From a virus, in the IMG/VR virus record IMGVR_UViG_3300044712_000991, positions 130,279 through 194,278 of that record: a stretch of DNA of 64,000 bases. One strand, written 5' to 3'. The notes beneath the pieces are model-generated. The model did not search any database, was not told the DNA's origin, and saw only the letters and a program-made list of their open reading frames with translations. Both the position numbers and the translations under genes were made by a program. Of the stretch, positions 27,496 to 63,220 are shown piece by piece (positions within the stretch are counted from its first letter, which is position 1; the number at the start of each line of letters is the position of its first letter).

Positions 27496-27532
27496 TACGT
27501 ACGCTCCTTTTCTTGTGTACTACATACTGCAC

Positions 27533-27727: not shown

Positions 27728-27750
27728 AGCGACCTCCCTCTGAATGTTTG

Positions 27751-31202: not shown

Positions 31203-34200
31203 TCACTGGTCGTAACTTGACAGGACATCCCGCCAAAACTCCAAGCTCGCCGCATCGTTGAGATAGTACTGCTTGTACTTCAGGACATCACTCACGAGCG
31301 CCTCTAGTTCCGCAAGCCCCTTCGCCAGATGGTCTCCGATTATCATCTGTACTTGTGTGTCGGACATCGCATCGTATTCGTCGCTGTAGTTACGAAGGTC
31401 TGCCACCATCGCTTCCACCCACTTCTGGGGGTCGGCCTTTACAAGATATGAGTCGATATCATCCATGTTCGGTAGTTCGAAGAGCGTGCTCGCATCAATG
31501 GCGAACATCAGCCATCCACCCGACCGACCCTCGACGGTCATGCCCTTGAACCACGGCTTATCGCCATAGTCCATCTTGATATCCTCAAGATACTGCTCTG
31601 CCTGGTAGCCCATGAAGCGGTCAATCTGCTCTGCACTGAGTTTCCGCTGGATGCTCTTCGGAATCTTCAACTGATAGACCTTGATGTTCACCGCAATCCC
31701 CGAGCCCCCATGGTTGTACCCTCGGTAGTACCTGTCCACAAACTGCTGAACTTGTTTCAAGGCCTCCACGGGATCAACTGGCATGTGCTCCAAGCCCTCG
31801 GCGTGGGTCTTCAGGCTCGCGAGCACACCGGGGTCTCCCGTGTGGCGCTCCCAGAAGTCCATGCTTTCCACCTCATCGATGTACCCCTGGAAGTACGTCT
31901 GCACCTGATACTCTAGTTCATTCAGTTCGGTCACGGCGAACCTCAAGGCCCCCTCGACCTCCTGGAGGATTTTGTGTTCGGGGGGCACACGTTCTGCCCC
32001 TAGTTCCTGCCGGAGTAGATAGGTGTAGGTGTGCAGGAAGTCATCGAAGGACATCGTGAAGTTATCCTCCGTGGTCTGAAGGGGTACACCCTTGTAGAGT
32101 TCGTTATCATCCACCTCAACCATCAGCCATCCATCGGAGCGCCCAACGAAGGCCGCCCCCTGATACCACGGAGCCTCCCCCATAAACTGATCCAAGTTGT
32201 CTCGCGTAGCAATAGCGAACGACCGTAGCGCGGCCTCTATTGTGTCCCCAGACAACCGTTCACGGACTATCTCGGGGATGTTCATCCGTGGGAGTTTCAC
32301 ATTGAACGCCACGCCCTTGGCTCCACTTTCATCCACACGGTAGTGCTTGAGCATGAACTCTTTCCACGCATCGTACAACTTACGCGCATCTTCGACCTCC
32401 ATGATGTCCAACCCCTCTGCGACCGTACGGAGTCCACCGAACTTCAGCCCCTCCTGTGCCTCGGGGGGCAGGAGAGCCTTCTGCGAACGGGTGTCCGTCG
32501 TGGGGGTGTCAGGTGGCATGGAGATGGCCAGTGGCTCCTCCCGCTCCTCCTCCACCCCCATTGGTGTCTGACGGACATCAGCGTTGACGAGCAAGAACGG
32601 ACCGTACCTCCGACTGACAGACCACGGTCCCGTGGAGTTCAAGTACTGTCCATCCTTCTGTGGGAGGAGCGCCTTCACGGCCTTCGGTCCGTTGCCTGTC
32701 CACGCGCCACGGAAACGAATGAAGCGTGCACCCCGCCTGTCCTGTGCGGAGTGCAGAAGCCTGTCGATGCGGATGAGGCTGTTGTTGGTCTGCCATATCT
32801 GCCCGGGGCGAACTGCTCTGCGGAACTCCTCCCATGTGTACTCCCCCTGATGTACAGGAGTGGCCGCTACGACCGTCTGTGTGAGCCCTCCACGGCGAGC
32901 CTTCGGAGCGTACCCCAAGAGCCTCCAGTGGAAGACCTCCCCTGTGTCACGCCGTGTGAAGACCCCACTCTGCCGTAGGCGGGGGTTGTCCGCACGCTTG
33001 AAGCGTTCGATGTCCCGCTTGAGTTCCGCCAAACGCTGTGGATCGTTCTCCAGGCGGTATCCTGGGCGATGACTGATAGACCACCGTACGCGCACCCCAT
33101 CCACTACGAGTTCCCCCTCATCGGGCAATCCATCAGCCTTGTAGTCCTCTAGGGCATCCGCTGTGGTTGACAACCGGAGGGAGGACATGGACAGCAGTTC
33201 ATCCCTGATGTTCTTCAAGTCTGCATCTGTGGTATGCGCGACCACCGTACTCAGCGCACGGAAAGTCTCATCCGTGGCATCCTCGGGTATCTCACGCATT
33301 ATCAAGTTCGCCAAAGCCTCTGCCTCTACAGGTGTAACCTCGCCCCAAATGGATGTGTGGACATCGAAGAGCACATGTTCGGCCTCCGAGTCCTCATCGT
33401 CAAGATCGCTGCCGTAGAGTGTGACATTCAACGGCGGTTGTCCGCCACGATGCTCGATGAAACACCGGAGTCCTGTCTCGGGGCTGAACTCGTTGTACGC
33501 TACGGGCTCCACGATGTTCTTGCGCATGTGCTCCAAGCCCTCAGCCTCCGCGTGCAGCGCGGCCTCGAAGGTGGGCATGGTGAACGGAGCCTCTGGGTCT
33601 TGTATGAGAGGGAGAACATCCGTGAGCCGTAGCGACTCCACGTAGGCCAAGAACTGTGTGAGGCTCTCCGTGAAATCCTGTGGATCAGCCCCTTGGTGTG
33701 TGCGAACCAACTGCTTAATCCGCAGGAACAACCACCACACCAGCACCGTTCCCTGATGGAACGTCAAGATGTTCGATATGTTTGTAACCACCTCTTCGTC
33801 GTACGTCGTGTGATTGGCATTCACAGATACTGTGATACGCAGAACATCCCCCTCATCTGTTGCATCTCCATCATCCGCCAAACGAAGTTCAATACCGTCC
33901 CGCGAGTAGTGGGCGCTGTGTAGAGCGAGGTCACTGATACCCTGCTCCTCCTGTTCCTCCTGCTCGTTCACCACATCCAAACCCTCAGCGAATGTGAAGA
34001 GCCTGGAGGCCATCACGACCGACCGCATGTCCTTCCTCAGGGTGAGCGGGAAGTCCGTAGCTTGGAGCGTATTGGACTGCGTGGGAGTCTTCAGCGAGTT
34101 GTCTGCCGTACGCCACTGCACGCCCTCCATCACGAGCTTGTTGTTGTCCTGCCCCGTGAACTTGAACGCGGGCAGGAGGTGCATGAACGTTCCGTTCTGT

Positions 34201-34436
34201 GCCTGCCATACCTGTCCCACACGGGCCGCCTGGGTGAAGTCCGACATCGTGTTCGCCATCACAGGAGGACCATCCTCCACATGCTCGTTCGGGCTCTGTT
34301 GTGGGGCTGTGGGAGGCGTGCTAGGAGCGGGCGTGGGTGTGACCGCCGTGGGAGGTGCCATACCAAGATCGGCCTCCACAGTGAAACCAACGGGTGGAAG
34401 GTAGGGGAAGAATATGTGTGTCCACGGAGAGTTCAT
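31203..34436 (-). CDS. 1077-aa modular polyprotein with AEGL linkers
   Basis: Linkers TFAEGL, AEAEGL, TTADAL, TVAEGL, THAEGL; last two modules paralogous (GRSDGWL / GRSGGWL). Confidence 0.85.
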   Translation of the reverse strand: MNSPWTHIFFPYLPPVGFTVEADLGMAPPTAVTPTPAPSTPPTAPQQSPNEHVEDGPPVMANTMSDFTQAARVGQVWQAQNGTFMHLLPAFKFTGQDNNKLVMEGVQWRTADNSLKTPTQSNTLQATDFPLTLRKDMRSVVMASRLFTFAEGLDVVNEQEEQEEQGISDLALHSAHYSRDGIELRLADDGDATDEGDVLRITVSVNANHTTYDEEVVTNISNILTFHQGTVLVWWLFLRIKQLVRTHQGADPQDFTESLTQFLAYVESLRLTDVLPLIQDPEAPFTMPTFEAALHAEAEGLEHMRKNIVEPVAYNEFSPETGLRCFIEHRGGQPPLNVTLYGSDLDDEDSEAEHVLFDVHTSIWGEVTPVEAEALANLIMREIPEDATDETFRALSTVVAHTTDADLKNIRDELLSMSSLRLSTTADALEDYKADGLPDEGELVVDGVRVRWSISHRPGYRLENDPQRLAELKRDIERFKRADNPRLRQSGVFTRRDTGEVFHWRLLGYAPKARRGGLTQTVVAATPVHQGEYTWEEFRRAVRPGQIWQTNNSLIRIDRLLHSAQDRRGARFIRFRGAWTGNGPKAVKALLPQKDGQYLNSTGPWSVSRRYGPFLLVNADVRQTPMGVEEEREEPLAISMPPDTPTTDTRSQKALLPPEAQEGLKFGGLRTVAEGLDIMEVEDARKLYDAWKEFMLKHYRVDESGAKGVAFNVKLPRMNIPEIVRERLSGDTIEAALRSFAIATRDNLDQFMGEAPWYQGAAFVGRSDGWLMVEVDDNELYKGVPLQTTEDNFTMSFDDFLHTYTYLLRQELGAERVPPEHKILQEVEGALRFAVTELNELEYQVQTYFQGYIDEVESMDFWERHTGDPGVLASLKTHAEGLEHMPVDPVEALKQVQQFVDRYYRGYNHGGSGIAVNIKVYQLKIPKSIQRKLSAEQIDRFMGYQAEQYLEDIKMDYGDKPWFKGMTVEGRSGGWLMFAIDASTLFELPNMDDIDSYLVKADPQKWVEAMVADLRNYSDEYDAMSDTQVQMIIGDHLAKGLAELEALVSDVLKYKQYYLNDAASLEFWRDVLSSYDQ

Positions 34437-34442
34437 ACGGAC

Positions 34443-37400
34443 CTATGCCTTTTCTTCTTGCGTACGCTCATGATCGAGCACCAACTGAGGGATGAACGCC
34501 GTGACAAACCGTACATCCGACCACCTGTCTGCCATGGGGCGGGCACTCCCATCGTACCCGCTCTGGGCGAACAGGGTGTCCTTGTCGTACCCGAACTTCC
34601 CGTGCACATGCCCCAGCACGGGGTCGGTATCCAAAATATGAACGAAGCGAGTCACTTTTTTACCTGCAAGCGGTCCCTGTCCCTCCCGCACGAACGACCA
34701 TATCTGCCCGGGGCGTGCGTACTGGAAGAAGGTATTCGGATCGCACTGCTTGTTCTGCAAGTACGCGTGCCAATCGGACTCCACCTGCAACTCGTGCGAC
34801 TGCGATTGCGGCAGCAGAAGCGCTTGCGACTGTGAAGCGGTAGTGGTGTGCGACACTACAGCATCCCACGCTTCGCTCGCTGGACCCTCGTAGATGATCT
34901 GGAAGTTCTCCACGCGTATACGGGGTTGGGTGCTGATAGTCCACTTCTCAATGGCCACATTGTCATTGGGCTTCCGATTGGTCTCAAGGTACTCCCTGAG
35001 CCACTCCCGTGTGGCGGCGGTCAGATACAGGAAGCTCACATTGTTGAACGATACCCTCATCCAACCCTTGAGGAGCAGGAAGATGTACCCACTCTCGGAG
35101 AACCGCCCGAACTCCTCCGTGTAATGCATGTGCGCAATCTCATCAGCTTCCATGTCGTGCGAGTGAGCGACCTCTACTGTTTCGCCCTTGTCAGACACCC
35201 AGGCTGAGGGGTCCATCTCGTACGAGGTGGTCGTGAGGCTTCCTCGACGTGCTTGCTGTCGCTCGTGAAACTCATCGTACAGCGCGTTCGCCTTAGCCAC
35301 CTCGGCCTCGACCTTGCTCTCATCCCACGGCATCATCTCCGATGGTGTAAGAGTCTGGTCTGTAGTTGTGCCTGCCGTGAAGTCGGGGTTGTCCTGAAAG
35401 TGCACCCTATAGAGGACACCCTCGTCGGGCAACCTACAGGTCTCGTTGATTTTTTTGAGTTTTATCTTCTGGGTTCTTCCACGATATACGCGCATGATCT
35501 CCCCAGGCATACCTGCATAGAACTTAGTGTGCCATGGGTATGGCCAGTGCTCCGCCGAGGCGCTCACATTGAGCATCACCTTCTGTCCCAACTGAAACTC
35601 TCCCGACATATCCGAGAGGAGTTCTCCCCGCGCACTCAGATCACTCTCGAACACCACATGCTCGGGACATACCTCATCCCCACCATCGAGGCACATCCAC
35701 CCCTGCCACACAGGTTCATGGCAAATAGCGCACGATGAGGCAGCCGCACCATCATCCCCAGGATCAACGGTCTCTAGGTCAAACTCTATCCACTGCGCCC
35801 CATGCTGATCGGTCCCGCTCTTGCGTGAGATGCCCTGAATGTTATGGAGCACGATCTCATCGGGGAACACATCGGGCTCCTCCTGCATGGTGTCCAGACC
35901 CTCAGCAGTCTTGGGGAACCGTAGATCAAGCGCGGTCTTTCTAGATGTCTGCCACACAGCACTCGATGGATTCTCTCCTTCGAACTCCTGCATGAAAACC
36001 GCGTTGTCTACGAACAAGAACTGCCTGGTGTTTTTCAAATCTTGAAGCATATACCCCAACCGTTGTCCGTAATCATGTAGCACCCGCTCATACTTCTCGG
36101 GTGACAACTTCGAGAGCATTCTCGGTCGCACGGAGTCAAAGAATCTCACAGTCACATCCATCGGGGGTTCCACGTAGGACAACATTTCCTCTAGTGTTCC
36201 CTTACTCACGAACGCGTAGTGCTTCCCCGTAGCGGTGTGTATGATGTCTGTCATCTGGGACAGCATCTCCGAGGTCTTCTGGAACCCGAGGTTCATCGAG
36301 GTCACGACATCCCGCAGTTCCTCCGTGGGGAGCGCCACCCACCCCGAGGTGCCCTCCTGCTCCTGCCGCCAGTTCTGCACCCACACCGCATCGGGTTCGT
36401 CCTTGAAGTACACCCGTTTACCCCGTGCATCCGTCTGAAGGTAGCCCTTGTAGCCCAGGCGTGAGGCGTTCTGGTCGAACTCGGGGGTCTCCGTTGATCC
36501 CGCGCCTCGGAAGGAGTACTGCCCATCATCGTACGTGAAGAACGACAGGTATTCCGAGGAGGTCTTCTGCATGCCCTCGAAGGTCATCCCCGAGTAGATG
36601 TCGGGTCGCAGGTCACGCTCGGTCTTCGGCTGATCAGGTGGTACGACCTGGGGATTCATGGGAGTCCAGTCAGTGAATGAATACTGGTCAGGATCGGGCT
36701 TCTGCCTCGGCTCCGGCCAGTGGGCTGGGGCGTAGAACATCCGCTCATTGTACGGTGCTTGCTCCGCATCCTCATCCTCCATACGCTTGAGGAGGTACGT
36801 CAGAACTTCGTACTCCGAGAGGCTTGCCCTGTCGAAGGAGAACCACCCGTTGGTCATCACGTACGACAGGTACGTCTCGGGCTGAGGTGGATTGAATTCA
36901 TCGTTATTTCCATCCCGCTCCATCTCCTCCATCACATCCTTGTTGGAGAATATTTCATCCCACGTGAAGAACTCCCCACTCCAGTCGTACATCAACGGTG
37001 GCTCATCAAAGTCCTTGTACTCCGGGAGTTCTACCCCCTGATAGGCGTAGACCATGATGCCCTTTGCGAAGCGCTTGCAGTAGTAGACCTCCTCGAAGTC
37101 AGACCCACTACCGTTGTCGGACAGGATTTCCCACTCATGGCTCTGAATGTACGACCTGAAGAACTTCCGCATGTGCTTCGCGAGCTCGGCGTTCTTCGCG
37201 AACTCATGCTCCTTCTCCAACTTCCAGAGCTCGTACGCTTTTTCCTTCTGCTCATGGGCTTCCCGCATCTCCTGCGGGGTCATCCCGAGGTACTGATTCT
37301 GCCTGAGCGCTCCCGGGCGTTTCTCCGAGGACTCCACACCTTCATACTCAGGAGGTGCCTCAAACTCAGGGTGCTCGGACTCCATGGCGAGCATCTTCGC

Positions 37401-37997
37401 CTTCCAGTCCGCATGCGCAGGATCGATTTCATCTAGGAGTTCCCCCAAGTGCTTCAGGGGACCCTCGTGGGGTTCCCCGAGGTAGAGTTCGACCTGTCCC
37501 TCGTAACTGATGCTCATGGAGGTCGGTAAGACCCACGTCTTGCCCCCCACTTCGATGAAGATAGTCCCATTGCGAGACCCCTCGGAGCGGGAGAACCTGT
37601 GATACAGCCGACAGTGGATACCCGCCCAGTTCAGCCACTGCTCAATCTGTTTTGCGGTGGTCACTGAGTTCCATCCGCCCGTACGCAGGACAACCCCATC
37701 GTTGGGAGTGAAGTTCACAATGGGCGTACTGTGGTAGATGACCTGCACACCTATCTCGGGCGTGTAGTCCACCTGTATGTTCTGCGCGGAGAGCCCTGCG
37801 GGGTAACTCGTTTTGCGCTGGATGCGCACCCTGCTCCTGAAGGTATCCCGCTGCTGTGTATCGAGGTTCACCACATCGAAGAACGTACTGAACACCTTCT
37901 GAAAGATGGGGTGTGTCCCCATCATAGGATCGAGCGCTTGGAGACCTTCGGCGTACGCACGAAGACCCGAGGTTGCTATGAACTTCAAATTATCCAC
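34443..37997 (-). CDS. ~1184-aa modular polyprotein; GTG start at 37997 inferred
   Basis: GGGAG SD 7 nt before a GTG that overlaps the upstream stop; linkers AYAEGL, KTSEML, KTAEGL; N-module YHSTPIV...LRTGGWNSVTT. Confidence 0.8.
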   Translation of the reverse strand: MDNLKFIATSGLRAYAEGLQALDPMMGTHPIFQKVFSTFFDVVNLDTQQRDTFRSRVRIQRKTSYPAGLSAQNIQVDYTPEIGVQVIYHSTPIVNFTPNDGVVLRTGGWNSVTTAKQIEQWLNWAGIHCRLYHRFSRSEGSRNGTIFIEVGGKTWVLPTSMSISYEGQVELYLGEPHEGPLKHLGELLDEIDPAHADWKAKMLAMESEHPEFEAPPEYEGVESSEKRPGALRQNQYLGMTPQEMREAHEQKEKAYELWKLEKEHEFAKNAELAKHMRKFFRSYIQSHEWEILSDNGSGSDFEEVYYCKRFAKGIMVYAYQGVELPEYKDFDEPPLMYDWSGEFFTWDEIFSNKDVMEEMERDGNNDEFNPPQPETYLSYVMTNGWFSFDRASLSEYEVLTYLLKRMEDEDAEQAPYNERMFYAPAHWPEPRQKPDPDQYSFTDWTPMNPQVVPPDQPKTERDLRPDIYSGMTFEGMQKTSSEYLSFFTYDDGQYSFRGAGSTETPEFDQNASRLGYKGYLQTDARGKRVYFKDEPDAVWVQNWRQEQEGTSGWVALPTEELRDVVTSMNLGFQKTSEMLSQMTDIIHTATGKHYAFVSKGTLEEMLSYVEPPMDVTVRFFDSVRPRMLSKLSPEKYERVLHDYGQRLGYMLQDLKNTRQFLFVDNAVFMQEFEGENPSSAVWQTSRKTALDLRFPKTAEGLDTMQEEPDVFPDEIVLHNIQGISRKSGTDQHGAQWIEFDLETVDPGDDGAAASSCAICHEPVWQGWMCLDGGDEVCPEHVVFESDLSARGELLSDMSGEFQLGQKVMLNVSASAEHWPYPWHTKFYAGMPGEIMRVYRGRTQKIKLKKINETCRLPDEGVLYRVHFQDNPDFTAGTTTDQTLTPSEMMPWDESKVEAEVAKANALYDEFHERQQARRGSLTTTSYEMDPSAWVSDKGETVEVAHSHDMEADEIAHMHYTEEFGRFSESGYIFLLLKGWMRVSFNNVSFLYLTAATREWLREYLETNRKPNDNVAIEKWTISTQPRIRVENFQIIYEGPASEAWDAVVSHTTTASQSQALLLPQSQSHELQVESDWHAYLQNKQCDPNTFFQYARPGQIWSFVREGQGPLAGKKVTRFVHILDTDPVLGHVHGKFGYDKDTLFAQSGYDGSARPMADRWSDVRFVTAFIPQLVLDHERTQEEKA

Positions 37998-45477: not shown

Positions 45478-45482
45478 GTCTA

Positions 45483-45494
45483 CCAAAATATAGG
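45483..45494 (-). promoter_or_regulatory. Candidate late-promoter motif CCTATATTTTGG
   Basis: Third copy of CCTATRTWTTGG, 5 nt before ATG 45477. Confidence 0.4.
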
Positions 45495-45535
45495 GGGATT
45501 CCCACACGTTTTACACTCCCCCTACGGAGTTCTCC

Positions 45536-54500: not shown

Positions 54501-57500
54501 CGCAGTTCATCCAACAGTTCCGCCTGGGTCTGCCTACCCGATGGGGGGTCTACGATGTACGTCAGGCTCTCCATCTCCGAGGCGGAGGTCATGTGCTTTT
54601 GTGGATTACCCCAACTGTCCTGCTCGGCATCCGTGAACACGCACACGAGATCATCGGGCTGTAGGGTGTACTCGGGTCTGCTGTTCTTGGGTATGATGTA
54701 CTTCTTTCTCAGATTCCGCACAAGACCCACCTCGTAGATATGCACGGTCATCGTGAGCTCGGGATCGACGTACCGCCTGTACTGCCCAGGCTCGACGGAC
54801 ACCCCGAGACCCTCAAGGGCTTCCGCCGTGGTACTCAGGATGTTCCGCTGAATGGCATCCTCCTCCACCCAATTGTAGTACTCGGGTATCACCGCACTGT
54901 CAACGAATATGTAGAACTCGCGATTGGGATGCTGGATGTACACATCACGGTCTCCCGCGTGCTCTGCCAGATACCCCTGGTGCCCCCCATAGTCCTGTAA
55001 CACCTGTGAGTGCTGCATGAGGTGTGAACCGTACTGCACCTGTCCCCCCGCGTCCACCATGAAACAAAACTCTGCCCTCGACTGTCCGTACTGTGCATAC
55101 AACTCAGCGAGAGTACCCTGTGCAAGAACTTCATACACATAAGAGTTGTTGGTACGCCAGAGGTACTTGGGGTTGAACGTATCGAGTGCCTCCGCTGTAG
55201 TAGCCCTTCCCTGGGTATCCACAGGGGCGTACTGTGCGTGCAACTGCGCTATCGTCTCGTAGATAAGATAGGGCACACCCGAATTCCGGCGGATGATAAC
55301 CAACGGCTCTGTCATCTTCGCCGCCACTCCATCCACTGTTAGGGTGGCCGCGACGTTCGTGTGCTTAGCAAGGTACGCACGCATGATCTGCTTGAACTGC
55401 TCGGGGGTGTCCGCAATGTCCACAACGGTGTACGTCCACTCATCAGCGGGGAACCTTTTCAAATACAACTCCGTACCTGGCGCGGACAGGAGGTCGTAGT
55501 CTAAGGCCTCCGCCGTGTGCTGTACTCCCTCTTCGGCAGGGGGATCATCATCAATCCCCGGCGTGTGTTGCTCCTCCCGACTGAACTTCTCCAGGAACAA
55601 TGGTAGTGCCGACCACCCGAGGTCTCCGTTGAGCATGCGCAGGATTACCACGGGCTCCCGCTGCTTCTTCATCGCCGTGAAGTACCGTGGGGGAACAGAG
55701 CCCTCCCACCGCTGCGCTATCTCGTAAGGATCACCCACATCGCGTACGCTGATCTCCCTGTACATCCCAGGCTGCACCCACTGCCCCTCGTGGTAAGAGG
55801 GGCGTATGTACCACTTCTCCCCCACATGCACGGGGTAGGTGGTGAGGTCTGTCAAGGCCTCCGCCTGTACGGGGCGAGCTGGGACTTTCTTGAGCATCAC
55901 CATGTTGGGTTCAGTATTGTACGCATAGGTGTCCGCATCCCTGAAGGTCGCCGTGGAGTGTGTGCAGTACAGGATGTAACACCGCACCCCCGCCAAAAGG
56001 GTGTCCCGCACGCCCTCCACCATCCTTGGCTGTGCATCTTCCACCCACGACCGACTCTGTAGAATATCCGTACGAACATCCTCGGGATTGAGAATGTCCA
56101 CCACACGGTAGAACACATCCGTACCATCCACGAAGGTTACGGTGTCCCCGATGTTGACGTCCCGAGGACTTTCAAAGACCTCCAAGGCCTCGGCTGTCGT
56201 ACGCCGCCTACGGACACGCCGGGGTTGTTTGGGTAGCACCTCGTAGCCATCGCGAACGAAGTCCTCACCATCCATCCATGTGACATCCCCATCCTCATCT
56301 TCCACCACGATGACCACCTCTGCCTTCTGCATCACAAACTTTGCGCGGGAGTAGCCCTCATTAACGAACCTCTGCCCCCACAGGTCACCCATCGCTCTCC
56401 CCGCACCACTACCGAGGACATACTGCACGGAGGCCGTGCTATTGCGACGAATGTGGTCACCTTGAACACAGGGGAGGCTCATCACATTCAACGCCTCTGC
56501 CGTACGCGTCCGTGTACGCGTACGGGGCTCCACCACACGCCACTTTCCGTTCGTCATGCTCGCCGCGGGCATCCATCCATATTTACGCTCCTCGTTCTCA
56601 TCGTCCTCATCCAAGAGAATCAGAACTTCCTCATCATCCACCGCTCTCATTCTCTCCGTAGCCCGAGGATATGTGGGAAAGGCGTGTGCCCACTTATCGG
56701 CCATCATCCGCCCTGGACCCTGATCAACAACAAGCGACTGCCATGTGTACGTCCCCGGACCCTCGATGGTCTTTCCAACAAATGACCCAGCGTTCATGAT
56801 GTCCAACCCCTCCGCGACCGCCACGAGCGATCCCACGGCTCTCCGGGGCTTCCCGAGCGCCATGTACGGCCCCACTCTATCCCACAAGTTACACATTAAC
56901 CCCCGGATAGTCAAGTCGTACTCGGAGTACGGGGCGTAGCTATCCATAAAGTCCCTCAAGAGGTCTGCATCGGGCTTGCGTACGCTGAGCTTCCGCACGA
57001 GTTGGCGGGGGGTCATGTCAAACGTGTCCATCGTGTGCTCACCGGCCTCCGCCGCATACTCCTCCAACTGCCGGGGGAAGTCGAGAACATCATACGCGCA
57101 ATCCGTCTGTGCGTTGACATGCACACCGTGATCCCAGTTGGCCACGCGCACGACCTCCTTGGTCGTGGGGTTCATCATCACCCTGAACTGCATGAGAGCC
57201 TCCACGGGGTCGGTGTTGTGGAAATCCCTACCCCCGAGGTTCGTAAAGCCTATCTTGTACAACGCCCGTGCGAAGTCGTGCATGTCATACAGACTGATAT
57301 TCGCAGACTCAGGGGAAGTCTCCTCCACCACATCCAACCCTTCAGCTTCGGTCTTCAACGCGCTCTCGGCAGTCTTGGGGGTCGAGGATGTCAAATGGAA
57401 CGCTCCGTTCATACTGAGCACGATGACTTCATCCCTATCGCTGACCATCAAGACCATCGATCTCCGGCGTGTCTCGGGCTCCTCATGTGAGCGGAAGAGG

Positions 57501-58693
57501 ACATCCCGCGTGTCCCCCTCGGGCACCAAGCCGCTGTCCAGGAGTTCCTCGGGCGTACCCACGGCGAGTACAGTGTACTTCCTATGGTTGTCCCTGCTAC
57601 CTGTCCACCGCGTCTGACCCACATAGATGTCCGACTGCATCTCTGGCAGGGCTTCGGCTGTGATGGTCTTTTTCTCCTTGCGTGCGCGTTCGATGCGTTC
57701 GCCATCCACACGGTAATCGTTGGACAGGAGTGTCATGCTCTCCGAGTAGACTATCACGGAGTGAAAGCCCCGTTCAACAAAGGGTTCCCACTCATCCACT
57801 AGTTGCCCACTCGCGATGGTCACCGAGTGCACTTCATCGGGGGAGACGTTGGATATGTAGCGCCCCTCAAACGACCGCCTGACCTGGAATAGTTCGAACG
57901 CCACGATCTTCGGGTTACGTACATACAGGGTGTACCCACTCGCGGTGAGCCACACTTGGTACTCCTTGAGTTGCTTGAGGAACGACCCAAAGGACTCATG
58001 CTCTTCATACTGAAGACCTTCGGCTTGGGTGCGGAGAGAAGCTTGAGTGGGACGTGGATCGAAGAGTTGGGAACGGATGTCATCGAAGGGCACGAGCACA
58101 TTGACCCCAAAGCGCGTGTCCTGCAATATGGCGAGCACGCTGTTCGTCGTATGCGCACGCAAATCGGTTGCGATCTCTGGATGGTCTGCCCAGTTTGACC
58201 CGAGGAAATAGTCACGATAACCGATGTCTACTACTATCCAGTCAGAATCCTGCCATGTGACAGGGGCTCCGAACTTCAAGGCCTCCGGGGTGTTCATGGC
58301 GAACTCCAACCCCTCAGCTTGCACACTGAGAGAGGCTTCTACTGGAGGTACAAAGTCTTCAAATTGGGAGCGTATAGCATCAATAGGTACGGTTGTGTAC
58401 TCTCCGTTGCCATCCTCATACAGTACAGCGAGCGCACGGTTTGTGGGGTACTGTTGCAGTTCGCCACGAATACCAGTATTGTTCCCCCACCTATCAGTCC
58501 CGAGTAACTCATCGCGATAGCCAATGTCGAAGACTTCCCATATGTTACCATCCCATTCCACAGGAGTAGCATACACCCACTCTTTTGGAAGAAGTTCACC
58601 GTCGTGGGGGGAAGGTGCATCTGGGGTGTTCATGGCGAACTCCAAACCTTCGGAAGTTGTACGCAGGGGGTCTAAAGCGGTCTTGGGAGTCAT
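45536..58693 (-). CDS. 4385-aa giant modular polyprotein with about 32 [A/S]E[G/A/L][L/V] linkers
   Basis: Linkers counted in the translation; many small SH3/KOW-like modules, four FA[R/Q]AL[Y/F]..GF modules, three YTG..H..A...TREEAA modules. Confidence 0.9.
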   Translation of the reverse strand: MTPKTALDPLRTTSEGLEFAMNTPDAPSPHDGELLPKEWVYATPVEWDGNIWEVFDIGYRDELLGTDRWGNNTGIRGELQQYPTNRALAVLYEDGNGEYTTVPIDAIRSQFEDFVPPVEASLSVQAEGLEFAMNTPEALKFGAPVTWQDSDWIVVDIGYRDYFLGSNWADHPEIATDLRAHTTNSVLAILQDTRFGVNVLVPFDDIRSQLFDPRPTQASLRTQAEGLQYEEHESFGSFLKQLKEYQVWLTASGYTLYVRNPKIVAFELFQVRRSFEGRYISNVSPDEVHSVTIASGQLVDEWEPFVERGFHSVIVYSESMTLLSNDYRVDGERIERARKEKKTITAEALPEMQSDIYVGQTRWTGSRDNHRKYTVLAVGTPEELLDSGLVPEGDTRDVLFRSHEEPETRRRSMVLMVSDRDEVIVLSMNGAFHLTSSTPKTAESALKTEAEGLDVVEETSPESANISLYDMHDFARALYKIGFTNLGGRDFHNTDPVEALMQFRVMMNPTTKEVVRVANWDHGVHVNAQTDCAYDVLDFPRQLEEYAAEAGEHTMDTFDMTPRQLVRKLSVRKPDADLLRDFMDSYAPYSEYDLTIRGLMCNLWDRVGPYMALGKPRRAVGSLVAVAEGLDIMNAGSFVGKTIEGPGTYTWQSLVVDQGPGRMMADKWAHAFPTYPRATERMRAVDDEEVLILLDEDDENEERKYGWMPAASMTNGKWRVVEPRTRTRTRTAEALNVMSLPCVQGDHIRRNSTASVQYVLGSGAGRAMGDLWGQRFVNEGYSRAKFVMQKAEVVIVVEDEDGDVTWMDGEDFVRDGYEVLPKQPRRVRRRRTTAEALEVFESPRDVNIGDTVTFVDGTDVFYRVVDILNPEDVRTDILQSRSWVEDAQPRMVEGVRDTLLAGVRCYILYCTHSTATFRDADTYAYNTEPNMVMLKKVPARPVQAEALTDLTTYPVHVGEKWYIRPSYHEGQWVQPGMYREISVRDVGDPYEIAQRWEGSVPPRYFTAMKKQREPVVILRMLNGDLGWSALPLFLEKFSREEQHTPGIDDDPPAEEGVQHTAEALDYDLLSAPGTELYLKRFPADEWTYTVVDIADTPEQFKQIMRAYLAKHTNVAATLTVDGVAAKMTEPLVIIRRNSGVPYLIYETIAQLHAQYAPVDTQGRATTAEALDTFNPKYLWRTNNSYVYEVLAQGTLAELYAQYGQSRAEFCFMVDAGGQVQYGSHLMQHSQVLQDYGGHQGYLAEHAGDRDVYIQHPNREFYIFVDSAVIPEYYNWVEEDAIQRNILSTTAEALEGLGVSVEPGQYRRYVDPELTMTVHIYEVGLVRNLRKKYIIPKNSRPEYTLQPDDLVCVFTDAEQDSWGNPQKHMTSASEMESLTYIVDPPSGRQTQAELLDELRDGPARVGSMVYMRIDPKMVYRVVAVVHSIQEYREVLRKYKAAHPGAGVQVWSDLLKNNVSIVLLHRVVEGQVGYLTYEPLHQFAQGYAEVPPTSELRTTAEGLSYVEKRRYTPPLRVGERVVVSEGSGLASGKHGEVRSGRESQDAGKLRYISMGWVYVRFDDGDGDFLPRTRLTRETPTEAEQRYGSWRTVAEGLDVITFPKYPVGMTFPDANDDQVVYKVLDAGDGPMIARKWGDKFTHPGAKGAIANEVLPVYIIQGPGGISWLTEDDLENLGIQPPVSAALTAQAEGLDTFTNPEWEIGGQFKLKFQQGVLVYRIEQVAPMQQFRARAPGARVSFLHSNEPPTTVAYLLRAISEDEDYSLYMLVGTRRSLEHWLEQWHATYFTPAEERYGASMVVEAEGLDIFTTPELGKVRHWTTLDVLDRKSMAFQVEFVGTPAEVLDWCLMQGVPLHAWNLDHVQKKVLAGDTNPLCAIRYTKSTSSSTLNIACYPVEEVLQTSEEVPTKGLSAQAEGLDIMQYHFWDYLWKGKPHSLSFRPYAVQECKPSELSLEDDSLRFTEDARRVMVSKDSPLYIIEDVSPYAWPARTRWVETMMGFVLKFEEWPSENGKAQHVVAPEFIDVIAADPLKYLRHEDELSSTAEALENFIDVERDFLTYPPEKGDIIIGPMDMRYTVLDSGTPDEIIRKWATQFRAQNANAAVNAINERGGQLVIIARPDGLPEDNTSVVWLNFFDQARAVHTQDGRTHYMRPPHMSALAGRTVEAEALSDLGGDIQVGSVWEIPREYRRSQVHFKGKWRPGYWRFWVREVTTLSALMAQNDNTTDSRDIRSHTYDYETTMGRRRERVPFEEVTKRWPSDIHYVYNQELLQGKGQDSMVVIFDVVPSSRRIRVMPYGGRWMMAEHFRQDLEYVGQASTMEEAVDLPSPSDLDSLGAVGGLHAEAEGLEAWLEPSMLHYLWKSKIYGIESPRLVKKLVASECDQVGGYEWTQASAHELEVNPHGELYAVYTMRWTPDQQEFPRLLTLRELMSEVQPYPMGSMRREHLERMPDSIRSEFHIHPEWMAAWEQAPGDYLTWEELPGMNATAEGLLAIPDADYEGIIIGEPRKWLHAPYQATETPFSVEDVGTWEDFQERKVFDNLLHGDNYPWFNTGEVLCLIKYQGLLHFPYSLSTLADVREKSLPVSQIQVTAEALNTPMVTVGDIYQWERYTDVFYVVRGTGSFRDLRTEFPDALSLAGETPDEQGVIVESLLASDPTVRGTLSKIPLASLVRHGQYLGRIEQVLPREQRRAELLDDMDKDAPPAGSPFQVGTMTRMGGSFFPIVDYGPLWVMEARYGPENLALSDQGMRRPQAPDLVYISRSPQEGLYFIDTQKTLEADLASGVLTIVPPDEEDGALRTTAEGLEIMQGPPVGGMHLTWKDAKQFAQALFDAGFTATLSLEPAVSLFEQGVLMNPQTMEFVFAEVRGHYEYNPTELRCRFVHLSVEDILTLVRRVARRESGLFEEELNMRTAEVIEELRAELLGPNPLGLLMMVFRAIPNAPHTTFNTTLGALVSTLWSRVRPFMVIGSVRTAEALTELAQPDQLRLEPEGWVYDVVDHGTLYDVWHRHSLERPKFNVKLYSGPGDFVRFDVMETPEVVVQYKNVQGVLLSHAYDKRPTGEQDTRMKDTRFFLFVDNRCLTDEYVPAWSDVRGREASGSWRTAGLLATSEGLDAFQEPPEFNSETRVTRENLEEFARALYKVGFTGTLEGESPEASLLQGGALVDLSQRRVVFLTNWDFASLQPTLSLVGATYERSMGALAGYVDQNIQDSGVGDEADEERQYILRTYFGGRTREEIQETFVGGSGDEVMELVGGWLSFVHNYLNDGQKWYEQNNNLADVIEELWPEIGQYMPHFQTPRSATAVLRSTSEGLGYMENAHQGLPEDYIMSWEDADNFARALYAIGFTALEEDTDDDPVRSLYVAGALMNPTTREVIVCEPQEDRDDADYDGPTFVQCSMTTMPLEDMEREVREFDGGAFESDLGMTTRDVLQELRRSSVPPQNPLPFLLEVVDCMDAFARSDYQMHLGELLADLWPRVKHLMELHPGKDVRRESSLRVRAEGLEEYGTIFVEGAHFMDGGSLDWNRLEEVGQYKDMMIAFHNPVWGLHTPTLFTPETPVWAYYSFGDKETYVDTEATLMEFLARGQIVFGDPRGPKPSVQPLWRTAELVDDPVLKYHPGEKYYAKALQDFIHILDTGTFEEMRRAHPEVYVSPTLDKHQQLYIVAKCGPQVFLSTVLALEKGLGMMNTVGARGYGEQFFITPEGEIVDAPEGHPYVAPSLLWSRYHEKVAEIEEGLEGYEEIALLLLKGWARVWNNHEDGEMGIESSTGFKGGVKDAIIELAAQYPHTLFILEDRKLVFFRGQGSELLDRDVLGSLVEHSTRKYPFLAAAIKLPDGRVYTGDWHAEAYRAFMEEEGLDFPEGYPEMPDALLNHPEYSEGFITNQGQYVTREEAAEIMRLPADQAEVGTLRNLGLMEEDPLPEGYRRTHASMGYSAFNVHLAASGLFKAPAFEIEGATYTGTTHSDATMAYLRRVDPEFDSLPELEQWRVIDEVMERGIDGFITNDDQFVTREEAARMLNVDYAESIEMRGRGEFGDPLKGTAALRIMASGLFEAPAFLVNGDLYTGYTHADAIEGFVRDVNPEFDRLAPDQREYEIDSFRNLGTEGYVLKGGQKFVTREEAAKMINVDYAESFDMRDMGHLDDSQEATSSMHAVAEGLEFMESDPTEEDPLGIIGQTYLYEDADRYVVIAFGNLKDMVNMEGALRVAFPEEGHKNWADMKVYVVATLARHYPYQWVTPEKLSGEIFRGTIKFDYDLHATAEGLNDMSEAIMVIHGEPYIRGGVLPHHGYRVFDAGSLEDMHAKYMTPSKPWRIGLMLEPLRFSKDGVTEEDLAQHGQDWVYVLSYVNFDGSPSEDGLGSLLFVGVEAFSRSFRDLRSPDQLQPLPQREY

Positions 58694-58779
58694 ACAGGCG
58701 AATTCCGTTTGTTTTGAGGCATCTTGATTACTGACATACTGCCCTACAGCGCTGTCGAAGTGGCGGGTACGAACGCGAA

Positions 58780-58816
58780 GCAGACCGCTCGTGGATCACG
58801 TCCCCAAGCGGTCTGC
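58780..58816 (-). other. Intergenic hairpin
   Basis: GCAGACCGCT/AGCGGTCTGC 10-bp stem enclosing CGTG-ATC-CACG. Confidence 0.55.
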
Positions 58817-58843
58817 CGTGGTCACAGGGGCTCCCCGGGATGC

Positions 58844-60811
58844 CTACAGAGCACTGAGGGCTTGTATCGTGGTCTCATACTCCCGACCACCGAAGACCGC
58901 GACTACCCTGTCACCCACTATCCGATCGACCGTACCCTGTCCGAGCGTGGGGTCGGTCAACATCTGTCCTACGCTGATGATGGATGCCTTCTTACCCTTC
59001 GCTGGCGTGGGGGCGGCAGGAGCCTCTACGGGCTGTTCAACGGGTCCTGGAGCCTCTCCCGGGGCGGGGTTGGTCGTTGGGGGCTGTGCCTCAGGTGCCT
59101 CGGGAGCGGGTTGGGCTTCCACGGGCTGACCGTTCAGCATGTCCCCCGTGCCCATCCCATTCACAGGATCGGCCTCGACGGAGATGTTGATCTGACCATC
59201 GGGCTTCTTCGTGAACTCCACACCAGCCTGACGCTGTGCACCCCGTTGTCCACGCACTACACGGGGCATCCTCTTGGAACTCAGACCGAGCCCCGAACCT
59301 CTGCCGTACCCCCGCTCTGCGCGTGACATGTCCTTGAGGATAGCATTGGGGCTTACAATGCCCAGTTCCTTCAGGTACTCCAGAAGACCCTGTACATCGT
59401 GGGGATCACTCATGTACCCATCATCAAAGATGGACTGCTCATCCTCCCCGAGTTCGGCACCGGCCTTGATGTCGTACACCGTTTGTCCCGTTGAGGCATC
59501 CCGCACATCCGCAGAGAACGACCCCCGCTCATCGAGATTGATGTAGTACTCCAGGACTTGCGTGTCGCCACCCATCTGCGTATCACCTGGCAACACATCG
59601 GCCTCCTTGTTCAGGAACTGCATGACCGACCGCCAACCCTTCTTGAGCAGACCCTCTCTTTTCGTGGAGGTCGAGGGTGTCCCCATCTCGATCGCCTTTG
59701 ACTTTCTGGCACCCACGCGGACACCCTTGCGTTGGTCGAACGGGGCGACCTCCTGAAGAACTGGCTGGAAACTCTGCGCGAAGTCCGAGAGGGGTGCGAC
59801 TGTGAGTGTCCCCCTCTTCAGGAATGCGACCACGACCTGCTTGGGCTTGAACTCCGCCTGAGCGCCCGTGACCACCTTGTACCCCTTGAGAGCCCCTTGA
59901 GCACTCAGTGCGGGCTGTACGACCTGTGCCTCCTGAATGGCCTCTTGGGTCTTCAACTGCTGCCACAGACCAACCGCTTGGAGTGCCACGCGCTCACCCG
60001 AGGCCTTGCTCTCGAACAGCCCACCCTTGCGCCACGAACTCCGCCGTGGGGTGTACCGCGTGCCACCCGTACCAAGGGAGTGCTCACTGTTGTACTCAGG
60101 ATGGTCAAACCGTCCACCCCACTCTTTCGGGCGTGGTCCCCGTGATTTGTCGGTGGACATGGGTTCTCCATCAAACCTCTGAAACTTCTCACCACACTTG
60201 GGGCACGTGCTCTGCGTAAAGGATGTCATTGGCGTAGACCCAGGAGCGAACTCTCGGGTGTCCCCCTGATACCCGCAGCCTGGGCAGTGCTGATACTCGT
60301 TGGCCTTCTTCTGGAGCGCAGTTCTCCACGCCACTCCCTGACGGAACTCCGCCGACCCTGTTTTGTACTCTGGCTGGGCTCCGAGAGCCTCCTCCTTGTG
60401 GGTCTTCACGGTCTCCGCCCGACCACCGCGCTCGTTCATCAGGGCACTCCCGAGGTCACGCCATGCACTCGGCTTCCCGTTGAGAGCCGAGTTCTGTGCG
60501 GGGTTCGCCTTGCGGTTGAGTGCCTCACCCTTGGTTGCCTGCTCCCTCCACGCGCTCACCTCTTTCTTCGCAGGATCGCCACCCGGCACGGGTTTGTCCC
60601 CCGAGAACTCTGCACGCATGGGCACCCCACCGCTACCCTCGGAGGTGTAGGTCGGCTTGTCCGCCTTTGTCCCCTGCTGCTTCTTGGTCACCGCCTGCCC
60701 AACACCTGCGCCCGCGCTTTCACTCGCCGCACTGTGTTCGACACCCGAGAATGTGAGGAGAGCCTGTTGCCTCCATGTACCTATCTTGAGCTTCCGTGGT
60801 TCGACCGACAT
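58844..60811 (-). CDS. 655-aa low-complexity, probably virion-internal protein with Zn ribbon and Pro-rich tail
   Basis: HCPGCG...CPKCG; recurring W-R motif; C-terminal SH3-like module. Confidence 0.75.
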   Translation of the reverse strand: MSVEPRKLKIGTWRQQALLTFSGVEHSAASESAGAGVGQAVTKKQQGTKADKPTYTSEGSGGVPMRAEFSGDKPVPGGDPAKKEVSAWREQATKGEALNRKANPAQNSALNGKPSAWRDLGSALMNERGGRAETVKTHKEEALGAQPEYKTGSAEFRQGVAWRTALQKKANEYQHCPGCGYQGDTREFAPGSTPMTSFTQSTCPKCGEKFQRFDGEPMSTDKSRGPRPKEWGGRFDHPEYNSEHSLGTGGTRYTPRRSSWRKGGLFESKASGERVALQAVGLWQQLKTQEAIQEAQVVQPALSAQGALKGYKVVTGAQAEFKPKQVVVAFLKRGTLTVAPLSDFAQSFQPVLQEVAPFDQRKGVRVGARKSKAIEMGTPSTSTKREGLLKKGWRSVMQFLNKEADVLPGDTQMGGDTQVLEYYINLDERGSFSADVRDASTGQTVYDIKAGAELGEDEQSIFDDGYMSDPHDVQGLLEYLKELGIVSPNAILKDMSRAERGYGRGSGLGLSSKRMPRVVRGQRGAQRQAGVEFTKKPDGQINISVEADPVNGMGTGDMLNGQPVEAQPAPEAPEAQPPTTNPAPGEAPGPVEQPVEAPAAPTPAKGKKASIISVGQMLTDPTLGQGTVDRIVGDRVVAVFGGREYETTIQALSAL

Positions 60812-60831
60812 GATGTACCTCTCTCGCTTGG

Positions 60832-61938
60832 TTAATGATTGATTTCGTACACATACACTTCTTCTGTGGAACCCCTCGTGATCCGTAGTGCCCTCAAGAC
60901 CTCCTTGGGCAAATCAAGGACCCGCAGGTAGTAGTCACCTAGACGGTGCTCATGCCCATCGTAGAAGGCGAGGAAGTGCCCCCGACCATCTACATTGATG
61001 GCCTGCTCCACGAACCTCCGCTTGTCCCTCACCCACGCACGAATAATGGGGTTCGCATCTTCCGCACGCCCCTTAATGGCCTCCAACGTATCTTCATCGA
61101 CCGAGCGTGGCATGTACGGCAGGAGAAAGCCCGTGTTGAACGCCCAGAGGGAGTCCATGATAGCCACGTACGCCGCTTTGTCTGCCATCTTGTCCGTCGC
61201 GAGCGCCACCTCCCACCCATCGAACTTGACCATCGGGAGCCCAAAATGAGAGTACCCGAGAAGTTCAATCGTTGAGGGTGCATTGGGCGAGCGCTCCCCC
61301 TCATCGATCGTGAGCGCCTCAGCCGTACGCGTGAGTACATGCTCAAAACTAAGTCCGCTACGTGACCTGGGCGAGGTCTTCTCCGGATCGAGCGACAGGT
61401 TGTACGTCGTACGCGACTTAGAGCCCGAGGGTGCATCTGTGGCAGGTCGGCCACCCTTCTGAGGCACATACTTGTACGGCACCTGTGTATCGAATCCAGA
61501 GTGAAAACCCGACATATCGGGTGTCCCGAGAAGTTTGCGCTCCAAATCCCTGGGATTGCCCTCGAACCACATGGTCTCTCCCAACAACTGATACGTCTCG
61601 GGGTTGTGCTCCAGGACCATCAACTCCACGGGGGGTTTATCCTGCAAGGTGTTCAGGTATGCCCGAAGCACATGTAGTGCATCCCTCCCCGGTCCACCCA
61701 TGGCCGTGCCCTCCACCTGAATGGTCTGCCCATTCACATAGAGATACCCGTGGGAGATGAACACATCCTCGGGCGTGGCATCGAACTCCCTGGAGAACTC
61801 CACGGGGGTCATCTTGAACAACTGCTGGAACAGGAGCGCCCTCCGTGCGAAAGGGATGCGCTCCCCCCGAGGAGAGACGAGCATGTCACCCGCACTTACC
61901 GCCCATATGGCCGCCCGTATGGAATCGAATCCGAACAT
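60832..61938 (-). CDS. Two-module protein with TAEAL linker
   Basis: ATG at 61938 right after the upstream stop; C-module ends DGRGHFLAFYDGHE. Confidence 0.75.
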   Translation of the reverse strand: MFGFDSIRAAIWAVSAGDMLVSPRGERIPFARRALLFQQLFKMTPVEFSREFDATPEDVFISHGYLYVNGQTIQVEGTAMGGPGRDALHVLRAYLNTLQDKPPVELMVLEHNPETYQLLGETMWFEGNPRDLERKLLGTPDMSGFHSGFDTQVPYKYVPQKGGRPATDAPSGSKSRTTYNLSLDPEKTSPRSRSGLSFEHVLTRTAEALTIDEGERSPNAPSTIELLGYSHFGLPMVKFDGWEVALATDKMADKAAYVAIMDSLWAFNTGFLLPYMPRSVDEDTLEAIKGRAEDANPIIRAWVRDKRRFVEQAINVDGRGHFLAFYDGHEHRLGDYYLRVLDLPKEVLRALRITRGSTEEVYVYEINH

Positions 61939-61939
61939 C

Positions 61940-62467
61940 CTACTGCGCTCCTTCTTGTTCTTCGTGCACGATGTACGCGTAGATGGTGGTGTCCATATCC
62001 TCCCGCCGTAGTCCGAGCGCATCGAGAATGTCCTGGGACAGTTCCATCCTCGACATCCCGAGGTCTTCCAATGTGTACTCCTCACCATCCCACGTGGAGA
62101 GGTATGTCCCCCGACCATCCACCTGCACGCACGCGGCAATAAACTCATCCTTGTAGGACACCATGCGCCACGCCGCCTGCCAGTCGTGGGCGAGAGCCCA
62201 CTGAATCTCCGTATCACCATAGTGATCGGTCACGAACGGTCGGAGAAACTCCCACTGGAAACTACCGCTCGCCAGCGCATCCCGTACCGCGTCGGGTAGC
62301 GCACGCTTCACAAGTTCCTCGGTACCGAGGGCGTACTCATCTTCCCCCACGCGTATCATGGGGAGCACATCAAAGTACTTCCTGCGCAGGAGAGTCGGCT
62401 GGCGACTCACGTACTCCAGACCCTCACCCACGCTCTGTATGCTACTGAAGGTCAGGCTGTCCATCAC
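61940..62467 (-). CDS. Paralog of the C-module of 60832-61938, with N-terminal SVGEGL linker
   Basis: DGRGTYLSTWDGEE; GGAGG SD region; ATGA overlap. Confidence 0.75.
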   Translation of the reverse strand: MMDSLTFSSIQSVGEGLEYVSRQPTLLRRKYFDVLPMIRVGEDEYALGTEELVKRALPDAVRDALASGSFQWEFLRPFVTDHYGDTEIQWALAHDWQAAWRMVSYKDEFIAACVQVDGRGTYLSTWDGEEYTLEDLGMSRMELSQDILDALGLRREDMDTTIYAYIVHEEQEGAQ

Positions 62468-63210: not shown

Positions 63211-63220
63211 AGGGGAGTCC

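Follow-up and report, generated by a model that had tools for sequence, protein, structure and literature searches.

The final part of IMG/VR phage record IMGVR_UViG_3300044712_000991, a genome of 194,278 bp with 55% G+C that CheckV scores as 100% complete, encodes four giant open reading frames (ORFs), termed A to D here, that are punctuated by copies of one short linker motif (Table 1). The window analyzed comprises 64,000 nucleotides (64 kb; positions 130,279 to 194,278 of the record), and the giant ORFs, like nearly all genes of this phage, lie on its minus strand. The first 134 bases of the record are repeated at its end with one mismatch (genome 1-134 versus window 63867-64000), an overlap that marks the assembly as circular or terminally redundant, despite the label 'linear' that it carries in IMG/VR. 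Closing the circle places the giant ORFs immediately downstream of the portal and protease genes. Along the minus strand, a large terminase (genome 15373-17304) is followed by a 1551-amino-acid (aa) pentapeptide-repeat protein, a 463-aa protein, the portal (genome 3242-5305), an exonuclease-like gene, a 356-aa protease, an ORF with SET and DUF5661 domains that spans the junction, an amidase gene (H), the smaller ORFs G, F and E, and finally the giants D, C, B and A.

The linker is a 13-residue motif, [AGS]-[SG]-L-x-[TAV]-x-[AS]-E-[GA]-L-[DE]-x-[MLF], numbered below from its Ala/Ser as position 0, and 46 copies occur in the four giant ORFs. The regular expression [AS]E[GA]L gave 45 seeds in A to D, in whose alignment position -1 is [TEQFV] and Pro is common at +9 and +10. 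A position-specific scoring matrix (PSSM) covering -5 to +7 was scanned, at a cut-off score of at least 12, against all ORFs of the 194-kb genome that reach 50 aa. All 51 matches fell on the minus (coding) strand, 30 in D, nine in C, five in A, two in B and five elsewhere (one in F, a weak one in G, and one in each of three other ORFs), with none in the 758 plus-strand ORFs and zero to two in each of 20 shuffles of the proteins. The concentration of 46 of the 51 matches in A to D, with nothing on the other strand and next to nothing in the shuffles, indicates that the motif is non-random and is maintained at the level of protein, and its codons vary synonymously, with two to five codons per residue at third positions. 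The invariance of Glu(+1) and Leu(+3) is partly built in by the choice of seed, and a real constraint is indicated instead by the scarcity of near-misses, the scores being bimodal with just five matches between 5 and 12, and by the absence of the motif elsewhere. Information content is limited to -6 to +7, the rest of the interval from -40 to +80 being at background; a repeat-domain signature was rejected on this lack of outside conservation and because most segments between motifs are unrelated.

About ten degenerate variants accompany the strong copies, four in C (Table 1), TTADAL, LKFG and LRFA in A, IMASGL and LKFG in D, and ALLTFSG in E. Including these, D holds about 32 copies, C 13, A seven to eight, B three, and F and G one each. 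A first-pass annotation made from the letters and ORF translations had described such a linker as recurring in six minus-strand ORFs; the ORF coordinates, genome-wide scan and shuffles bear this out, and its copy counts are nearly matched once the degenerate variants are added. It had also placed linkers just after the N-termini. With starts picked by Shine-Dalgarno sequence, the first copy indeed falls at residue 14 in D, 13 in G (with Gly in place of Ala), 16 in B (from a GTG start) and 36 in C, and a variant copy lies at about residue 22 in E. The sole strong motif outside this operon is SKRVQAEGLG at residue 349 of a 692-aa ORF without a family match (genome 21462-23540; PSSM score 19.7), which could be either a second substrate or a chance match.

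Table 1. Features of the motif-bearing locus. Coordinates refer to the window unless marked 'genome'; copies in D are given as residue of position 0 followed by the window coordinate of the lowest base of the 12-nucleotide (nt) core.
Feature	Coordinates	Strand	Size or residues	Remarks
Head protease	genome 709-1779	-	356 aa	40-residue PHROG match to head-maturation protease
Junction ORF, N-terminus	genome 1-713			Directly after protease gene
Junction ORF, C-terminal part	63221-64000	-	~425-450 aa in all	DUF5661 + SET
ORF H	62464-63330	-		N-acetylmuramoyl-L-alanine amidase family; Pfam Amidase_2 1.1e-14
ORF G	61940-62467	-		Real start ATG 62464
G leader	62411-62458			SLTFSSIQSVGEGLEY
ORF F	within 60832-62467	-
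F motif	61312-61359			GLSFEHVLTRTAEAL
ORF E	58844-60811	-	655 aa
E leader variant	60737-60763			ALLTFSGVE
ORF D	45536-58693	-	4385 aa	30 strong copies
D copies 1-8	14:58643; 126:58307; 224:58013; 346:57647; 450:57335; 627:56804; 732:56489; 834:56183	-
D copies 9-16	944:55853; 1061:55502; 1167:55184; 1290:54815; 1391:54512; 1498:54191; 1591:53912; 1687:53624	-
D copies 17-24	1799:53288; 1911:52952; 2040:52565; 2163:52196; 2341:51662; 2484:51233; 2588:50921; 2798:50291	-
D copies 25-30	2970:49775; 3106:49367; 3306:48767; 3496:48197; 4151:46232; 4256:45917	-
Modelled D module	48149-48826	-	3290-3515	Includes both flanking motifs
ORF C	37990-45507	-	2505 aa	Polyvalent protein; 9 strong copies + 4 variants
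C strong copies			36, 261, 387, 490, 613, 1504, 1631, 1771, 1894
C variant	42415-42441			SLLTFSDIL, before Fic
C Fic/Doc	42010-42393	-	1039-1166	Pfam Fic 1.2e-12
C variant	41968-41991			SSLRFADV, between Fic and deacetylase
C histone-deacetylase-family domain	41104-41880	-	1210-1468	Pfam Hist_deacetyl 5.7e-45
C variant	39001-39024			TSLKFADV, before InPase
C InPase	38536-38952	-	2186-2324	Pfam 1.5e-45
C variant	38263-38286			GLLTFAMY, after InPase
ORF B	34443-38114	-	1223 aa as longest ORF	Strong copies at 55 and 737 of the long ORF
B leader	37935-37988	-		Tandem LKF...AEGL
ORF A	31203-34436	-	1077 aa	Strong copies at 150, 298, 372, 673, 879
A variant	33144-33182	-		SLRLSTTADALED
A tandem variant	32406-32450	-		GLKFGGLRTVAEGLD
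A variant	31932-31949	-		ALRFAV

Several lines of evidence place the motif at the borders of modules. Cut at its copies, D falls into 31 segments of 93-210 aa and a single stretch of 655 aa. Most segments are mutually unrelated; 15 pairs are paralogues whose alignments start at about residue 1 and extend to the end of the segment, and their members are often adjacent (s1/s2, s6/s7 and s26/s27 of D, s7/s8 of C, s4/s5 of A), and the final two segments of A (675-880 and 881-1077) align from residue 1 to 188. Since paralogues align motif to motif, the unit of duplication is the inter-motif segment. In C, motif copies or variants stand on either side of the Fic, histone deacetylase (HDAC) and InPase domains as delimited by Pfam. 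The share of order-promoting residues falls from a baseline of 0.33 to 0.18-0.28 immediately before the motif, and Pro and Gly increase on both sides. An AlphaFold2 (AF2) model of one D module, built on four paralogues, predicts a core (residues 28-194) with a predicted local distance difference test (pLDDT) score of 70-90, while the parts that hold the motifs, residues 1-27 and 195-226, are coil with pLDDT below 50. Because this alignment is shallow, we regard the model as supportive rather than decisive. Thus, the earlier suggestion that linkers fall between domains agrees with the domain limits in C, the in-register paralogues and the unstructured tails of the one module modelled.

The content of the modules is largely orphan. 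Recognizable families are confined to the three domains of C, whose PHROG matches through the InPase include DarB-like, minor head and virion proteins, and the other approximately 45 modules lack an assigned family or fold. No Pfam, PHROG or NCBIfam domain was found in A, B or D except for a weak phrog_19389 match in B; residues 1-1200 of D had no homologue among 1.84 billion (1.84e9) cluster representatives; no homologue of D was found among giant proteins, and no close locus in IMG/VR; and an ESM Atlas search with D residues 3498-4150 gave no usable match. A fold search with the modelled D module returned three-helix-bundle noise (Z score at most 5.1). The first-pass annotation had called the modules effectors, a term that suits C with its Fic/Doc, deacetylase and InPase domains and finds no recognizable family or fold behind it in the remainder. 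Such orphan modules would fit fast-evolving conflict proteins. They are unusual in a phage with over 100 relatives of its structural genes.

Those relatives carry a different, shorter signal at the same places. Protease-based searches recovered 25 IMG/VR and 80 metagenome loci, all of which lack the extended motif, and a DNA pattern for A-E-[GA]-L-[DE] finds zero to three matches in five large near-complete relatives versus about 45 here. The large head-region ORFs of the relatives are instead punctuated, at similar density, by L-[KR]-[FL]-[SAG], with seven copies in a 1046-aa ORF of L016 and ETTSSLRF[SA] in G001, for example. In the nearest relatives Asp or Glu usually follows (LKFSE, LKFAE, LKFAD). 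Relatives also contain tandem double sites built of the short form alone. The short signal is also present in the two head proteins of 1551 and 463 aa that this phage encodes, and in each of A, B, C, F and G it is paired with an extended copy; the two sites of a tandem lie 7-10 residues apart, both here and in relatives.

Alignments with homologues set the two forms side by side. After the deacetylase module, ASLFTFSEGL corresponds to VSLSSLSFN in L017; after Fic, SSLRFAD corresponds to TSLKFS and QKLTWAD in relatives; and the leader of E reads ALLTFSG(V) against LLVKLSG(I) in L033, the closest syntenic relative (protease 70% and portal 77% identical), which keeps the order protease, a gene X, amidase, F, E until its contig stops inside the E homologue. 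Within F, GLSFEHVLTRTAEAL aligns with GNMRFSDVL of the L033 homologue, the TAEAL copy lying in a 10-residue insertion. Both forms are found at module borders and in leaders, share an anchoring small residue and an upstream [SG]-L, and coexist in C and A. The extended form differs in having one more residue between Leu and Ala, in the loss of the Lys/Arg-Phe pair and in the gain of a near-fixed E-[GA]-L-[DE]-x-[MLF], and it has expanded to 46 copies seen only in this genome among those examined. Because the two occupy equivalent positions, the extended motif is, as judged from these alignments, derived within this lineage from a leader and linker signal found across the clade, with the same small residue as anchor. 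The first-pass annotation had picked out the Ala/Ser as what RFA and KFA variants share with the full motif, and the small residue of the relatives' signal does align with that Ala. One IMG/VR pattern scan was insensitive, its pattern matching the phage's own window once; another gave, among the matches listed, chance single matches and a tape-measure-like protein with two LAEGLEAM repeats. This 925-aa protein occurs in unrelated contigs (L147:7915-8094, L151, L161) and has two LAEGLEAMGTTKVLFGAL copies, 53 aa apart and inside hydrophobic segments; its resemblance to the motif is due to chance.

The 356-aa protein encoded before the junction ORF is, on its predicted structure, a protease with the fold of T4 gp21 and herpesvirus assemblin. 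Among its 118 homologues (39-79% identity), H89 and S189 are invariant and H215 is near-invariant. With an AF2 model of pLDDT 84, a wide VIA-align search ranked T4 gp21 first (5jbl_A; Z 9.2, root-mean-square deviation 2.9, 132 residues), followed by the proteases of varicella-zoster virus (VZV; 1vzv_A, Z 8.6), human cytomegalovirus (Z 6.3) and Kaposi's sarcoma-associated herpesvirus (Z 6.0), with unrelated folds at Z of at most 5.3. Foldseek was weak, with herpes proteases at E ~1, and the protein itself has no Pfam match, the Peptidase_S77 model included; elsewhere in the genome no Pfam match to S78, ClpP, S49, U9 or Peptidase_S77 was found. A phage protease of the kind anticipated in the first-pass annotation is therefore present, and once the record is circularized the giant ORFs lie directly downstream of it. 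Several homologues (P0065, P0075, P0079 and P0116; 478-757 aa; L065:7932-10202) contain an intein near residue 191, beside the catalytic Ser189, as judged from Hint/LAGLIDADG Pfam matches, and the L065 portal gene (L065:2280-6833) apparently holds inserts as well (1518 aa versus 687 aa).

Taken together, we lean modestly toward the reading that A to G and the SET/DUF5661 protein are late polyvalent cargo proteins associated with the head and processed by its protease. Each cargo protein would consist of modules that fold independently and are strung together by a short linear signal, and it would begin with a short leader ending in the same signal, with [SG]-L-x-[TAV]-x-[AS]-E-[GA]-L-[DE]-x-[MLF] as the extended form of L-[KRT]-[FL]-[SAG](-[ED]). 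The leader would bring the polyprotein into the prohead, where the gp21/assemblin-fold protease would cut every signal to yield about 50 proteins of 10-25 kDa and a few enzymes, among them the Fic/Doc, deacetylase and InPase proteins, and the products would remain in the capsid until ejected with the DNA. Directly observed are the motif and its statistics, its place at module borders and N-termini, the gene order and the positional match with the relatives' signal, to which the modelled protease fold is added; that the signals are cut, at which bond, and that the products are packaged, ejected and directed against the host is what we infer. We favor a cut after Glu(+1), with Gly/Ala(+2) as a small P1', because the T4, phiKZ and SPN3US proteases cut after Glu before a small residue, and because +2 alternates between Gly and Ala, as would be expected of P1'. 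A cut beside the Ala/Ser at position 0, in the manner of assemblin, would also fit, since that small residue is the sole one common to all forms. The [TAV]-x-[AS] at -2 to 0 matches assemblin P3-P1, yet the next residue is Glu rather than Ser.

Several observations weigh against cleavage by the head protease. First, if Glu is taken as P1, 41 of the 45 seeds have T, E, Q, F or V at P3, so the (L/I)-x-E rule of T4 fails, only the L-x-T-F-[AS]-E subtype having a hydrophobic P3, and the (S/A/G)-x-E rule of phiKZ and SPN3US fails as well, Ala being at P2 rather than P3. Second, neither motif form occurs in the likely major capsid protein (genome 106569-107516) or in a 628-aa scaffold-like protein, and these canonical substrates therefore provide no independent check on specificity. 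Third, the spacing from Leu to Ala differs by one residue between the extended and short forms, both of which a single protease would need to accept, and the short-form sites in the 1551-aa and 463-aa proteins have no acidic residue at +1. Fourth, a precursor of about 1 MDa per copy set must fit in the capsid. Finally, such an array was seen in none of the relatives and IMG/VR contigs examined. The dicing by a prohead protease put forward in the first-pass annotation thus agrees with the borders, leaders, protease fold and gene order, and departs from the Glu rules of T4 and phiKZ/SPN3US at P3.

Alternatively, the motif could remain uncut, acting as a flexible hinge and repeated docking peptide so that intact beads on a string are packed or act. 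For docking, an amphipathic turn formed by Leu(-4), Ala(0), Leu(+3) and Met(+6) could, for example, bind scaffold, capsid interior or DNA. The hydrophobic spacing at -4, 0, +3 and +6 does suit one face of a short helix, the E-G-L-[DE]-x-M on the P' side is tighter than needed if the small residue alone sets the cut, and the N4 virion RNA polymerase and some plasmid polyvalent proteins are delivered uncut (PMC5512222). However, AF2 places both motifs in low-confidence coil, the Gly/Ala alternation at +2 is typical of P1', and in relatives these positions are occupied by another short signal, at which leaders end as well, an arrangement that suits a removable signal better. We therefore consider an uncut linker possible but unlikely. 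Somewhat less likely still is a proposal in which the extended part of the motif is more than a protease site, and the E/G-L-[DE]-x-M end, which each of some 46 orphan modules would retain or lose on cleavage, could be a second signal. Such a shared end could serve capsid retention, ordered ejection through the tail or recognition by a dedicated second enzyme; if this proposal is true, the array would be a bar-coded, fast-evolving library of about 50 injected mini-proteins, candidate anti-defence factors whose limits could be read from the sequence.

It also seems quite improbable that the motif is a cleavage site for another enzyme, either a host protease acting after injection or an unrecognized peptidase module within A to D, as in the embedded metallopeptidases proposed for polyvalent proteins by Iyer et al. 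(PMC5512222). Such an enzyme would account for an extended form confined to this genome when the head protease is 66-79% identical to those of relatives lacking it, the tandem extended and short forms could be explained by two enzymes, and about 45 modules without assigned function leave room for it. Against this, searches of Pfam, PHROGs and NCBIfam found no peptidase family in A to D, HExxH is absent there except for one HEDDH, the genome holds no other capsid-protease family, and the tandems built of the short form alone in relatives indicate that two enzymes are not required.

A very unlikely explanation is that the peptide has no role, being a remnant of tandem duplication or a conserved DNA joint for module shuffling. 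That neighboring segments are often paralogues accords with this, as does codon skew: Leu(+3) is encoded by TTG in 29 of 46 copies where some 10 would be expected (p = 3e-9), and 30 of 42 Ala(0) codons are GCC or GCT where 16 would be expected. Neighboring-base context accounts for only part of the skew, and the phage tRNA-Leu (anticodon TAG) reads CTN, not TTG; its gene is one of three minus-strand tRNA genes at window 26961-27832 (Val-TAC, Met-CAT, Leu-TAG), with five more upstream of the window. However, the motif is kept although most segments are dissimilar, which points to purifying selection on the peptide. It is likewise found in leaders and, in alignments with relatives, stands opposite another peptide signal. 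A recombination joint was judged unlikely because synonymous sites vary, leaving the joints with too few shared bases for homologous recombination.

In-frame internal translation starts, with GAGG as Shine-Dalgarno and Met at +6, are scarcely credible and were rejected on codon counts and +6 residues: although GAG-GGN is followed by ATG 11 nt on in 16 of 46 copies, GAG and GAA stand at 31:15 against 35:11 expected with no enrichment, +2 is Ala (GCN) in 14 copies, +6 is hydrophobic (M/L/F/V/I) rather than a start codon, and no stop codons separate the modules. An O-glycosylation sequon for the phage's glycan island was considered, Thr being common at -2 and -1, and rejected since Thr occurs in less than half of the copies while A-E-G-L is fixed.

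Features of the smaller ORFs and neighboring genes complete the picture of the locus. The likely start of B is a GTG at 37997 with a GGGAG Shine-Dalgarno, which would give 1184 aa. In its longest form, the ORF of F shares 280 nt with G in a different frame (window 61940-62220), and F probably starts near residue 95 of that ORF (MFGFDS...), because homology with L033 begins at F residue 112; L033 has no counterpart of G, and its F homologue bears the leader itself. ORF E is 48% identical to its L033 homologue. At residues ~58-85 (window 60560-60640), E shares a V-P-x-x-A-E-F-S-G-D-K ... W stretch with the scaffold-like 628-aa protein (genome 108212-110098), also kept in relatives, which could be a common capsid-interior binding segment. 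It is probably no Glu-specific cut site, because one relative has Lys in place of Glu. ORF H, between the protease and the giant ORFs, is 51% identical to its L033 homologue and has no motif copy, and the junction ORF matches the SET (2.3e-9) and DUF5661 (2.7e-8) models of Pfam. In more distant relatives (L010-L016), the scaffold-like 628-aa protein, a 157-aa protein and the 315-aa probable capsid protein directly follow the protease. In this genome the same block lies about 85 kb away (genome 105.8-110.1 kb; 105869-110098); here, and apparently in L033 and L007, the candidate cargo genes follow the protease instead.

Processing of packaged cargo by the head protease, the reading we prefer, would relate this locus to several known systems. 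Polyvalent proteins, among them phage proteins with InPase, have been predicted to be packed into the virion, to enter the host with the DNA and to be split into units (PMC5512222). The giant ORFs resemble them as late phage proteins, encoded beside virion genes, that string together unrelated conflict-type enzyme domains. ORF C combines Fic/Doc, Hist_deacetyl and InPase in one polypeptide, A, B and D are multi-module proteins without a family, and the neighborhood, downstream of portal and head protease with synteny to L033, is of the polyvalent kind. The published polyvalent proteins have 2-15 known domains, for whose release embedded zincin-like or other peptidases have been proposed, and no described linker motif (PMC5512222), whereas here about 50 modules, most without a family, are joined by a repeated 13-residue signal and preceded by N-terminal leaders. 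No embedded peptidase, be it a zincin-type metallopeptidase, OTU or papain-like, was found in A to D with Pfam, PHROGs or NCBIfam, although the orphan modules could hide one. If our reading is true, the polyvalent idea would extend from a few enzymes with embedded peptidases to orphan strings cut at a head-protease site.

The internal proteins IPI-III and Alt of T4 offer a second parallel, with a gp21-fold protease, a capsid-targeting sequence as the short N-terminal leader ending in an Ala-Glu-containing site, and products that are small proteins held in the head and injected, as is predicted here. The leader of T4 IPIII ends in ...I-A-E, and IPI* is an anti-restriction factor. The putative leaders of D, G, B and C, and the variant in E, have this form, each being a short N-terminal stretch that ends in the motif. 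T4 cargo is encoded by separate genes with one site each, unlike the dozens of fused modules here, with their variable P3 and, if cleavage follows Glu, Leu at P6. The head proteases of T4, phiKZ and SPN3US cut after Glu and remove N-terminal propeptides of 20-254 residues, some of which are cut several times (PMC10052503). Those of phiKZ (gp175) and SPN3US (gp245) share with the proposed system a gp21-like protease, many head and ejection substrates and a small P1' (PMC10052503, PMC5694885), and differ in their A/S/G-x-E specificity (P3-P1) and in the loss of propeptides rather than dicing into equal modules; SPN3US has 14 sites in nine proteins, versus about 56 candidate sites in seven proteins here. 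The R and M sites of herpesvirus assemblin and scaffold (UL26/UL26.5) involve the same fold (VZV, Z 8.6), and their (V/L)-x-A|S, with a small Ala at P1 and an aliphatic P3, resembles [TAV]-x-A, but herpesviruses have two scaffold sites and no cargo polyprotein, and here P1' would be Glu.

A full-text literature search on phage polyproteins and prohead proteases retrieved no description of such arrays. What is particular to this phage is the scale (46 strong copies, ~27 kb and ~50 modules), the orphan modules, and the presence of ancestral short and lineage-specific extended signals in one genome. Should the motif prove to be a cutting signal, sequence alone would delimit about 50 small proteins carried in the head, giving a list of candidate injected host-takeover or anti-defence factors of which almost none has a relative in 1.8 billion proteins. 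Such signals could also predict the capsid cargo of uncultured phages. A conserved protease with a clade-wide short signal and a lineage-specific extended one would also be a natural system for studying the co-evolution of prohead-protease specificity and substrates.

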